From the NCBI GenBank assembly GCA_024275665.1, contig JAJRYS010000012.1:1-35600 (forward strand): a stretch of 35,600 nt of DNA. Reading direction: 5' to 3'. The notes beneath the pieces were generated by a model. The model made no database searches, had not been told where the DNA came from, and saw nothing but the letters and a program-made list of their open reading frames with translations. Below are positions 6,817 to 31,102 of the stretch, piece after piece. Source of the DNA: an archaeon (lineage in GTDB: Archaea; B1Sed10-29; JAJRYS01). The stretch's first letter is position 1; each line of letters starts with the position of its first letter. The position numbers and the translations under genes were made by a program.

Positions 6817-6999
6817 TGGGTCCACCCGGATTTTCGTGGGGAGTTGCGCTTGCCCCAGCGATAGGCCGCTTCACGTGGCCTGCAGGGGTAGAGGGGGTGC
6901 AACCCCTCTTTCGAACCGGGGAGCTTCGCCATACTGCCAACAGCCATTGCTGTGGCTGTTGTCGTCAAGGCGACGTCCTAACCACTAGACCATGGACCC
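6817..6999 (-). tRNA. tRNA-Val(GAC) with two introns: 37/38 (6932-6962, 31 nt) and 59/60 (6831-6909, 79 nt)
   Basis: Acceptor GGGTCCA/TGGACCC-A73, anticodon arm TCGCC-TTGACG^T-GGCGA, T arm CCCGG-TTCGAA^T-CCGGG; BHB-like junctions; no encoded CCA. Confidence 0.9.
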
Positions 7000-8377: not shown

Positions 8378-8639
8378 AGCCACAGATGGGACTTGAACCC
8401 ACAACCTCCTGCTCTCTCAAACTGCTCCTGTTACTTGTTTTCCGCTGTGAAGCGGAAACCAGGCCACTTCAGCTTCAGCTGAACGTGGTCTTCAGATGTC
8501 GATTTGCGAACTGGGTAGTTCGCAAATTTGAAGACGCGTAGTCTTCAAATCTGGCTGTGGCAGTCGTACGAGGCAGGCGCTCTGCCATTGCTCCCACGAG
8601 CAAAGAAGTTTTGCTTCAGGCGAATTGAGCTACGGTGGC
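8378..8639 (-). tRNA. tRNA-Thr(CGT) with two introns: 15/16 (8588-8624, 37 nt) and 37/38 (8414-8566, 153 nt)
   Basis: Acceptor GCCACCG/CTGTGGC-U73 (one mismatch), D arm GCTC-AA^TGGCA-GAGC, CCTGC-CTCGTA^A-GCAGG, GTGGG-TTCAAGT-CCCAT; 72 nt after splicing; BHB central helices GCUC/GAGC and CUCG/UGAG. Confidence 0.9.
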
Positions 8640-30011: not shown

Positions 30012-30273
30012 CGCGGAGGGCGAGATTTTCTCGCTGTCCAGCTGGCTTTTCCGCTGTTAAGCTGAACTAGTGCATGCGGCTTGAGCCGCGTGCGCTTAAG
30101 TGCCGGCTGGTTGCAGCCGTTCGAACTCGCGAGCCCCGAAGGGCACTGGCTTAGCAGGCTCGCCTCGCTCCGCCGCTCTTGGAAAAGCAGCGTGGGCGAA
30201 CCAGCGCAATACCATTGCACCTGCAAAGGTGCAAACCAAAGGGTTTGCCGTTTGCGGTCTATGCGACCTCCGC
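30012..30273 (-). tRNA. tRNA-Ser(GCT) with three introns: 15/16 (30215-30258, 44 nt), 30/31 (30159-30200, 42 nt), 59/60 (30026-30119, 94 nt)
   Basis: Spliced 82 nt: GCGGAGG/CCTCCGC-G73, CTGG^C-CTGCTAA-GCCAG, variable arm GCCC-TTCG-GGGC, GCGAG-TTCGAA^T-CTCGC; BHB helices GCAU/GUGC, CGCU/GGCG, UUCG/AGAA (one mismatch). Confidence 0.88.
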
Positions 30274-30382
30274 GCTTTTAGTATTGTAGTGTGCATGGTT
30301 TTAACCATGCGCGCTTTAGCGCCAGTCCGATAATGTCGGCTGTGCGGCCTCCGCGCTTTTAGTATTGTAGTGTGCATGGTTT
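30259..30382. repeat. Direct repeat of tRNA-Ser exon 1 plus upstream flank (30259-30301 and 30340-30382)
   Basis: 43 bp with 2 mismatches, 35 bp exact (30267-30301 = 30348-30382), offset 81. Confidence 0.92.
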
Positions 30383-30418
30383 AGTGTTGTATTTTTGTTC
30401 TTCTTTTCTTAAAAACTT

Positions 30419-31102
30419 TTACTCAATCATTATTCCTGCTGCTTCGTCAAGGGTTCCTACGCAGGTGATGTTTATTCCTTGCTCGTCTTGCACGAGCGGG
30501 CATTGTGCTTTTGGAATGAGGATTTTTTTCAAGCCGTATTCTTTTGCTGTTTTTACTTTGACTTCTAGTCCTGCTATTTCACCGATCCTGCCAGTGTCGT
30601 CAATGGTGCCTGTGATTGCCGTGTCTTGCCTGATTGTTTTGTTCTCTGCCAGGGCTATAAGAGCCACTGCTATTCCTGCTCCTCCTGAAGTTCCTTCAAT
30701 GTAATGTGCTTCTGCGCTTACTGTTATGAACAAGTCTTCGTTCCCAAGCGTTTCTCCTAAGTAATTTTCAACAGCAGTAATCACTATTTGCATTGAGTCT
30801 TGTAACTGCATGCCGTAAGAATGCAGTGTGGTTTCGAAGAACACCCTTCCCCTACCGGGTTTTTCACTCACTCTTATCCTCACAAGCTCGCCTGTTTCAT
30901 TATCTTCATGAATTCCTACTCCTATGACTGTAACTGAATGCTGTTCGTTGCAGTTAGTATTTTCTCTGGTTATTACTATCTCTTGCGTTGTCATTGATTG
31001 AGTGCTTTTTAAAGGGTTGTAGTTTATTATCATTCCTATTCCGAAGAATACTTCAAAGAGGATTATTATAATGAGTATTGCTATGAGTTTCTTTGCTTTC
31101 AT
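30419..31102 (-). CDS. Membrane-anchored stand-alone Lon protease (S16) catalytic domain
   Basis: N-terminal TM, PGRGRV, IEGTSGG (Ser), AITGTI..TGRIGEIAGLEVK (Lys), ILIP. Confidence 0.88.
   Translation of the reverse strand: MKAKKLIAILIIIILFEVFFGIGMIINYNPLKSTQSMTTQEIVITRENTNCNEQHSVTVIGVGIHEDNETGELVRIRVSEKPGRGRVFFETTLHSYGMQLQDSMQIVITAVENYLGETLGNEDLFITVSAEAHYIEGTSGGAGIAVALIALAENKTIRQDTAITGTIDDTGRIGEIAGLEVKVKTAKEYGLKKILIPKAQCPLVQDEQGINITCVGTLDEAAGIMIE

Follow-up and report, generated by a model that had tools for sequence, protein, structure and literature searches.

A predicted tRNA-Ser(GCU) gene with three non-canonical introns in the small genome of a DPANN-type archaeon

A tRNA-Ser(GCU) gene interrupted by three introns was identified on the minus strand of a 35,600-nt stretch of archaeal DNA (hereafter the window). 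The explanation that we consider highly probable as a whole is that this is the sole detected Ser(GCU) gene of the genome, that its three BHB-type introns would be processed by EndA and RtcB, and that all of them are recent gains. The genome comprises 634 kb (0.63 Mb) on 37 contigs and is 90.8% complete. Judged by the closest relatives of its EndA, which are titled Candidatus Iainarchaeum or Micrarchaeota, the host is a DPANN-type archaeon.

Results and Discussion

Structure of the tRNA-Ser(GCU) locus

Exons make up 82 nt of the locus and introns 180 nt. The features of the gene, in window coordinates, are as follows.

30273-30012, minus strand: tRNA-Ser(GCU) gene, with G1 at 30273 and G73 at 30012
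30259..30273, minus strand: exon 1, 15 nt, tRNA positions 1-15, collinear with intronless orthologues
30215..30258, minus strand: intron 1, 44 nt, at position 15/16 in the D loop
30201..30214, minus strand: exon 2, 14 nt, tRNA positions 16-30
30159..30200, minus strand: intron 2, 42 nt, at position 30/31 in the anticodon stem
30120..30158, minus strand: exon 3, 39 nt, tRNA positions 31-59
30026..30119, minus strand: intron 3, 94 nt, at position 59/60 in the T loop
30012..30025, minus strand: exon 4, 14 nt, tRNA positions 60-73

The first-pass annotation of this DNA gave the same coordinates and did not mention the minus strand. Its description of three introns, totalling 180 nt and all non-canonical, holds at 15/16, 30/31 and 59/60.

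Exon 1 contains the acceptor 5' strand, U8, the D-stem 5' strand GCAU, A14 and G15, and exon 2 contains the remaining D loop with G18 and G19, the D-stem 3' strand, G26 and anticodon-stem positions 27-30. Exon 3 carries the anticodon loop CUGCUAA, the 3' strand of the anticodon stem and a 15-nt variable arm, and ends with the T-stem 5' strand GCGAG followed by UUCGAA of the T loop. Exon 4 consists of U60, the T-stem 3' strand CUCGC, the acceptor 3' strand and the discriminator G73; CCA is not encoded. Owing to a run of A, the boundary of intron 3 can be slid to 58/59 or 57/58, and the best motif is obtained at 59/60.

The stretch had been described as GC-rich and covered only by spurious ORFs, and this description is accurate. 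Its G+C content is 57.7%, compared with 44% in both flanks and 38.8% in the genome, and none of the four ORFs that overlap it has a match in Pfam. Neighbouring ORFs encode a FEN1/XPG-type nuclease and a Lon_C-type protease. When the unspliced window was searched with ARAGORN and with Rfam, at the gathering threshold and then at E up to 10, both were blank at the locus. A search of the stretch itself against Rfam at E up to 10 returned three matches, all at chance level, and no other family.

The spliced product is a class II tRNA-Ser

Joined in silico, the exons of 15, 14, 39 and 14 nt form an 82-mer that ARAGORN identified as tRNA-Ser(gct). The unconstrained minimum free energy (MFE) structure of this product (-38.9 kcal/mol) is a class II cloverleaf with a long variable arm, in which the 7-bp acceptor, D, anticodon and T arms are all present. 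The conserved U8, A14, G18 G19, U33, purine 37 and T loop UUCRAnY are likewise in place. A long variable arm and the discriminator G73 confer Ser identity. Both had been reported in the first-pass annotation and both are seen in the folded product, together with the anticodon GCU; the variable region is 15 nt long with a 4-bp stem, and the orthologues are alike in these features.

ARAGORN was too lenient for this purpose, accepting many arbitrary variants among 32,826 in-silico spliced sequences from 64 candidate loci, and it was therefore replaced by a cloverleaf score, shuffled controls and orthologue alignment. The score, which is our own, combines stems with conserved positions. At the real locus, the highest-scoring variant obtained 32, which equals the best uninterrupted tRNAs of the genome, and this variant is the solution proposed in the first-pass annotation. 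When the interior was shuffled 100 times (mononucleotide shuffles), the top variants obtained 21 to 28, and none (0/100) reached 32.

Intronless Ser(GCU) genes were found in eight other genomes, including three of the same family (G002, G003 and G004), three of the same order (G007, G009 and G013) and two of the same class (G019 and G027). All three junctions are uninterrupted in these eight genes. The spliced 82-mer aligns without gaps with its intronless orthologues, sharing 73/82 positions with that of G007 (L004) and 69/82 with that of G002 (L005). From the D arm through the anticodon arm it is identical to the G007 gene, and the differences from the orthologues in the acceptor and T stems are compensatory. 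The splice junctions are thus fixed by gapless comparison with intronless orthologues and not by ARAGORN. Paralogues give further uninterrupted junctions: the T-loop junction in Ser(GGA) on contig C28, and the 30/31 junction in Ser(CGA) on contig C26 of this genome (G000) and in Ser(UGA) of G011. As for the orthologues themselves, ARAGORN called tRNA-Ser(gct) at 7/7 loci given to it (all intronless orthologues but that of G003), and Rfam called tRNA at 3/3 loci given to it, with 60-64 bits. With the cloverleaf, the orthologue alignment and the shuffle control in agreement, the predicted three-intron tRNA-Ser(GCU) gene is confirmed as real.

Splice motifs of the three introns

In a canonical BHB motif, a 4-bp helix carries a 3-nt bulge 3' of each strand, and cleavage takes place after the second bulge nucleotide. 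In each of the three introns, a 4-nt exon strand pairs near the 3' end of the intron, between two 3-nt bulges. The exon strands of these central helices are positions 10-13 for intron 1, 25-28 for intron 2 and 54-57 for intron 3; the first two had been named in the first-pass annotation, and both helices were recovered here. The central helix of intron 1 is GCAU/GUGC (4/4, with one G.U), with bulges AG^A and AA^U, an inner helix of 1+5 bp with one C.A mismatch and a weak outer helix of 3 bp (two G.U). Intron 2 has the central helix CGCU/GGCG (4/4), bulges GG^U and AG^C and a 4-bp inner helix UCGC/GCGA; its outer helix is absent, as in the relaxed HBh' form. The outer helix of intron 3 is the 5-bp T stem, its bulges are AA^C and AA^U, its central helix is UUC/GAA plus a G57.A mismatch (3/4), and the inner helix GCUG/CAGC follows a G.G mismatch. 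All three therefore depart from the strict hBHBh' form, intron 2 by the missing outer helix, intron 1 by its weak one and intron 3 by the mismatches beside its 5' bulge. The introns fit the relaxed motif classes described in PMC3239211. The G57.A and A58.G pairs next to the 5' bulge of intron 3 might suggest a k-turn; this reading was discarded, as in the k-turn consensus the bulge is on the other side of the G.A pairs.

The pairing covaries between exon and intron across genes. Among nine D-loop introns, the intron strand changes with the D stem (GCAU/GUGC, GCAC/GUGC, GCAG/CUGR and GCUC/GAGC), and compensatory changes were also observed in the inner helices of the homologues of intron 1 and of intron 2. 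Four homologues of the 30/31 intron all have a central helix of 4/4, and all four lack the outer helix. In the T-loop introns (n=28), the intron strand covaries with R57 (UUCA/UGAA and UUCG/CGAA), and the central helix is complete (4/4) at 20 loci and 3/4 at the remaining eight, Ser(GCU) among them. The predicted MFE structure of the precursor (-124.1 kcal/mol) does not contain the BHB motifs, and forcing all three costs +13.8 kcal/mol.

Interrupted tRNA genes across the genome

About 40 or more tRNA genes are needed by the genome. ARAGORN detected 11, one of them spurious, and Rfam gave 15 tRNA matches, 12 of them over the cut-off. An ad hoc search for a fully paired 7-bp acceptor stem combined with a UUCRA T arm retrieved 41 tRNA loci, 28 of which contain a 59/60 T-loop intron ending in GARAR^U. 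These T-loop introns range in size from 34 to 171 nt. The Ser genes are similarly interrupted: Ser(UGA) has introns at the same three positions as Ser(GCU), Ser(GGA) has them at 15/16, 30/31 and 37/38, and Ser(CGA) at 15/16 and 59/60. The first-pass annotation had treated the three-intron gene as a rarity, which does not hold, since it is one of many interrupted tRNA genes in this genome.

Intron 3 is a diverged member of a structured, 94-103-nt family of T-loop introns that is also present in the Asn, Cys, Gln(CUG), Arg(UCU) and His genes. A BLAST search with its 3' part retrieved the T-loop introns of Cys (C22), Asn (C8), His (C35) and Arg(UCU) (C29). One member of the family is located at 37/38, in a Thr(CGU)-like gene within the window. 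Spacers of only 10-25 nt separate many tRNA genes of this genome from a preceding one.

A second Ser(GCU) gene was sought in two ways. No second GCU anticodon arm in a tRNA context was seen by eye among 25 uninterrupted candidates, and BLAST of an intronless orthologue against the genome retrieved only the Ser(GCU) locus and Ser(GGA). That no other Ser(GCU) gene exists, a point raised in the first-pass annotation, is thus borne out within the 634-kb, 90.8%-complete assembly. AGY codons account for 35% of Ser codons (2,487/7,091 in 271 long ORFs), and with no second gene found in an assembly of that completeness, the gene appears to be needed.

Origin of the introns and of the upstream unit

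Ser(GCU) is intronless in three of the four other genomes of the family; in the fourth, G001, neither BLAST nor a pattern search retrieved the gene. This distribution indicates that the introns are recent gains of the lineage. Homologues of intron 1 were identified in Ser(GGA) of this genome and of G001, in Ser(UGA) of G011, in Thr(UGU) of G003 and in Cys(GCA) of this genome. A 389-nt metagenome contig from a relative is collinear with the locus and skips exactly 30215-30258, which is intron 1. It retains intron 2 and the start of intron 3, and 41 other letters replace the unit upstream of the gene. This three-piece contig (X2) has a depth of 2.6 and a shorter joint side of 22 nt, at a likeness threshold of 85. 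DNA contigs from four runs gave fragmentary cover, and X2 was the only one used, with caution.

The region upstream of the gene contains a partial duplicate of its 5' part and a direct repeat.

30302..30354, minus strand: upstream partial duplicate (pseudo-5'-exon unit), in which three small hairpins follow a 15-nt exon 1 copy
30267..30301, minus strand: proximal copy of a 35-nt direct repeat, made up of 28 leader nucleotides and tRNA positions 1-7
30348..30382, minus strand: distal copy of the 35-nt direct repeat, heading the upstream unit

The exon 1 copy differs from exon 1 by two changes, C8 and C13. From the upstream unit through exon 2, the locus is 83% identical to the Ser(GGA) locus. 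A similar unit precedes Ser(GGA) on contig C28, analogous units precede Leu, Gly, Lys and Pro genes, and partial 5'-exon duplicates were found upstream of at least eight tRNA genes in all. The upstream units and intron 3 were inspected by eye for C/D-box motifs, and none was present in the Ser(GCU) copies. Leaderless transcription was considered as a reason for the units and rejected, given the many tRNA genes that start 10-25 nt after another.

Intron 1 and the upstream unit were probably copied together, at the DNA level, from the paralogous Ser(GGA) locus. For the order of gain, we infer that introns 2 and 3 came first and that intron 1 followed with the unit. The T-loop intron family, with intron 3 as a member, would have spread to many tRNA genes. 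Such spread is possible since UUCRA of the T loop offers an identical exon half of the motif in every gene.

Processing enzymes and predicted maturation

A single EndA gene was identified (C37:1404-1949), encoding an alpha-type protein of 181 aa with domain scores of 110 and 47.7 bits. Compared with the alpha4 enzyme of M. jannaschii (1a79), it has a single one-residue indel and no insert. Searches of the 90.8%-complete genome for a second EndA subunit, with PF01974 and PF02778 (E up to 10) and with the EndA protein as query, yielded no beta unit. The only additional match, on contig C8 (E 0.059), was discarded, as it belongs to an unrelated 189-aa ORF that looks acetyltransferase-like by eye. 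RtcB is encoded at C29:5794-7086 (572.6 bits), with one in-frame TAG at C29:6232. Reassignment of TAG was not supported as an account of this stop, as TAG ends 45/496 long ORFs and readthrough adds only about 5% to ORF length. Archaeal RNase P RNA (RF00373) was also sought, and the 90.8%-complete genome yielded nothing at E up to 1, which is not evidence of its absence. A 5'-trimming activity must exist, since many tRNA genes are only 10-25 nt behind another.

From the gene structure, BHB complementarity, covariation and enzyme genes read in the sequence, we infer a route of transcription, cleavage and ligation that has no fixed splicing order. The minus-strand transcript would yield a precursor of at least 262 nt; no RNA sequencing run was found that contains the stretch. 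In each intron, the four exon nucleotides upstream of the 5' splice site would pair with the four intron nucleotides upstream of the 3' site, so that both cut sites would fall in 3-nt bulges. EndA (C37) would cut the six sites and RtcB (C29) would join the four exons. CCA addition would follow, and SerRS would then recognize the product through its long variable arm and G73.

According to PMC3239211, alpha4 enzymes require strict hBHBh' motifs, and relaxed motifs have been tied to (alpha-beta)2, epsilon2 or insert-bearing enzymes (PMC3239211; PMC5829648). The plain alpha-type EndA of this genome is thus a puzzle when set against intron 2, which lacks the outer helix, and against the mismatches of intron 3.

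Alternative explanations

The first-pass annotation had proposed ordered, structure-gated splicing, in which the GCGAGA end of intron 3 could capture the 3' T-stem strand (TCTCGC) in a decoy hairpin. The hairpin stands as far as base pairing goes: the complementarity is 6/6 and the GCGAGA/UCUCGC helix is part of the unconstrained MFE structure. Across the 28 genes with T-loop introns, a 6/6 match was found only in Ser(GCU), with 5/6 in three genes and at most 4 in 24, and GCGAGA is a conserved intron end that is common to the T-loop introns of Cys, Arg(UCU) and His, where the T stems differ. Because this end is conserved in the family and fully matched in just one gene of 28, there is no sign that the decoy has been selected, and it looks like a coincidence with the ancestral T stem of tRNA-Ser(GCU). 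We consider it unlikely that the introns are removed in a fixed order, with GCGAGA holding the 3' T-stem strand until the other two are gone. In favour of this reading, the central helices of introns 1 and 2 preclude both the D stem and the uppermost part of the anticodon stem for as long as they exist. Against it, the decoy would tie up AGAA, a portion of the intron strand required for the BHB of intron 3. No segment is shared between the three motifs, which can coexist; along with the acceptor, variable and T stems they fit into one structure of -110.3 kcal/mol, compared with -124.1 kcal/mol for the MFE, and nothing in it imposes an order. At these sites, relatives have single introns or pairs of introns, so that no intron depends on another. 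With coexisting motifs and such relatives, ordered splicing is unsupported.

Three other readings concern the gene itself. The locus might be a decaying pseudogene, with Ser(GCU) supplied from a part of the genome missing from the 37 contigs of the 90.8%-complete assembly, and the relaxed BHBs of introns 2 and 3 would suit such decay. This is very unlikely, as every conserved tRNA position and stem is intact, the differences from the orthologues are compensatory and a second Ser(GCU) gene was not found; moreover, Ser(GGA), Ser(UGA) and most other tRNA genes share the architecture and cannot all be pseudogenes. A comparably low probability is given to the proposal that the upstream exon 1 copy, with C8 and C13, is sometimes or always the one joined to exon 2, in which case 81 nt would be lost with a longer intron. 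GCAC of the unit does form four Watson-Crick pairs (4/4) with the GUGC that ends intron 1, the outer helix would be no worse than the real one, and no archaeal RNase P RNA was found that would trim an 81-nt leader. The product would, however, have C8 in place of the near-universal U8, and the unit of Ser(GGA) has a change that breaks the acceptor pair 3-70. Such units also precede genes that lack a D-loop intron, for example Gly(GCC) and Pro(UGG), and the tRNA genes lying 10-25 nt behind others imply that 5' trimming takes place. The chance assembly of a tRNA-like sequence from a GC-rich spacer or from another structured RNA is the least probable of these readings and is extremely unlikely. 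Arbitrary splice variants of GC-rich loci often pass ARAGORN, which lends it some plausibility, but no shuffle in 100 attained the score of the locus, the splice motifs covary and Rfam offers only the three chance-level matches at E up to 10. The gapless 73/82 match to an orthologue effectively refutes it.

Comparison with known systems and significance

As many as three introns have been described in a single archaeal tRNA gene, and both 30/31 and 59/60 are among the published sites (PMC3239211; PMC4090602). One example is tRNA-Pro(UGG) of Pyrobaculum islandicum, interrupted at 25/26, 37/38 and 56/57 (Sugahara et al. 2007, cited in PMC4090602). The Ser(GCU) gene resembles the multi-intron tRNAs described for Thermoproteales, which have up to three BHB-type introns, often of the relaxed HBh' form. 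It differs from them in that its introns are all non-canonical, with none at 37/38, and in that its host is a 0.63-Mb DPANN-type archaeon and not a crenarchaeon, in whose genome an (alpha-beta)2 endonuclease was not found. Position 15/16 does not appear in the list of published non-canonical sites given in PMC4090602.

Another parallel is ARMAN-2 (Ca. Micrarchaeum), an ultrasmall DPANN archaeon in which 56% of tRNA genes are disrupted and 59/60 T-loop introns occur, one of which, in pre-tRNA-Cys(GCA), was cleaved in vitro (PMC3239211). Many disrupted tRNA genes and 59/60 introns are thus common to both. The enzyme of ARMAN-2 is described as a three-unit epsilon2 protein with a specificity loop, whereas this genome encodes a single 181-aa alpha unit without an insert. 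The 59/60 intron of ARMAN-2 measures 13 nt, compared with 34-171 nt for the T-loop introns at 28 loci here. The intron transposition described for Thermoproteales (2010 work, cited in PMC4090602 and PMC3239211) is similar in that near-identical introns occur across isoacceptors and are absent in close relatives, which points to recent spread at the DNA level. In the present case the lineage is different, the spread is centred on 59/60 and partial 5'-exon duplicates lie upstream of several genes. A eukaryotic nuclear tRNA gene likewise has three introns, one per arm; its splicing machinery is different, and no evidence was found that the Ser(GCU) gene is related to it. In the literature searched, as far as the sources cover the subject, no description of the T-loop intron expansion of this lineage or of the upstream 5'-exon duplicates was found, which is not proof that there is none. 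The Ser(GCU) gene is a genuine case of a known multi-intron kind, and the genome is more interesting than the single gene.

To our knowledge, the mechanism that creates or moves archaeal tRNA introns is still unknown. Intronless orthologues within the family and a contig lacking exactly one intron provide a rare close-up of recent intron gain, and point to spread both among Ser paralogues and at a single universal site, 59/60. For the annotation of such DPANN genomes, tRNA counts and claims of missing tRNAs are artefacts of intron blindness. Manual searches for unidentified disrupted tRNA genes in DPANN have been called for (Kaneta et al. 2018, PMC5829648), and the window is a worked example of such a search.

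The occurrence of relaxed motifs beside a seemingly plain alpha-type EndA contradicts the textbook pairing of enzyme architecture with intron type. We tentatively put forward a broader proposal, possible though rather doubtful at present, in which relaxed motifs at dozens of sites would be handled by a single alpha4-type EndA that lacks the specificity loops known elsewhere, the structured 94-103-nt intron family would be actively colonising the universal T-loop sequence (28/41 loci), and the 5'-exon duplicates would be footprints of the DNA-level copying by which these introns arise or move. If true, this would represent a new route to broad tolerance of tRNA introns.

Further intron-containing tRNA genes in the window

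Two further tRNA genes with two introns each were identified in the window, both on the reverse strand.

6817-6999 (-), hidden tRNA-Val(GAC) gene with two introns
8378-8639 (-), tRNA-Thr(CGU)-like gene with a D-loop intron and a 37/38 intron

The tRNA-Val(GAC) gene lies immediately downstream of the annotated tRNA-Ala(UGC) gene (7096-7026) and was not detected at 6817-6999 by ARAGORN and Rfam. Its introns are 31 nt at 37/38 and 79 nt at 59/60 in the T loop. The Thr(CGU)-like gene has a 37-nt D-loop intron with the central helix GCUC/GAGC and one C.U mismatch in the acceptor stem, and a second Thr(CGU) gene is present on contig C9 of the source genome G000. Its 37/38 intron is 153 nt long and includes T-loop-family intron sequence, which shows that this family occurs at more than one position.

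Partial duplicates of 5' exons

At least eight tRNA genes of G000 are preceded by upstream units of 64-95 nt each. The loci are as follows.

Window 30302-30382 (-), upstream unit
C28:14913-15003, upstream unit
C12:5458-5645, upstream unit
C36:2286-2367 and C36:2578-2671, upstream units
C14, two loci, upstream units
C28:17518-17581, upstream unit

Each unit begins with a copy of the first 7-22 nt of its own tRNA gene, often together with the short leader of that gene, and continues with unrelated hairpins. The unit of Leu(UAG) is present as two tandem copies of 94 nt each, and the unit 5' of Leu(UAA) is nearly identical to it. The Ser(GGA) and Ser(UGA) orthologues in the related genomes G001 and G011 lack upstream units.

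Processing enzymes

C37:1404-1949 (-), single alpha-type EndA splicing endonuclease, 181 aa
C29:5794-7086 (+), sole RtcB ligase gene of G000, with an in-frame stop at C29:6232

Among proteins of solved structure, this EndA is closest to the alpha unit of M. kandleri and the alpha4 enzyme of M. jannaschii, and it carries no insert. Its host genome has non-canonical, partly relaxed introns in the majority of tRNA genes. Many tRNA genes of G000 start 10-25 nt after another tRNA gene and therefore need 5' trimming; archaeal RNase P RNA (RF00373) gave no match at E up to 1 in the 90.8% complete assembly.

The single in-frame TAG in rtcB stands directly ahead of the conserved GTLGSGNH motif. Genome-wide reassignment of TAG was considered as its cause but is not supported, since 45 of the 496 long ORFs still end in TAG. 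The stop could be an artefact of assembly, could be read through at this site specifically, or could mean that the gene is broken.

Intron content of Ser(GCU) in a related population

A contig from X2, a run from another metagenome, aligns to 30102-30500 and carries the Ser(GCU) gene; it lacks both intron 1 and the upstream unit but retains intron 2. Its depth is 2.6, and one side of the joint is short. Judged from this sequence, the difference between the related population and G000 at Ser(GCU) is one of intron presence or absence.
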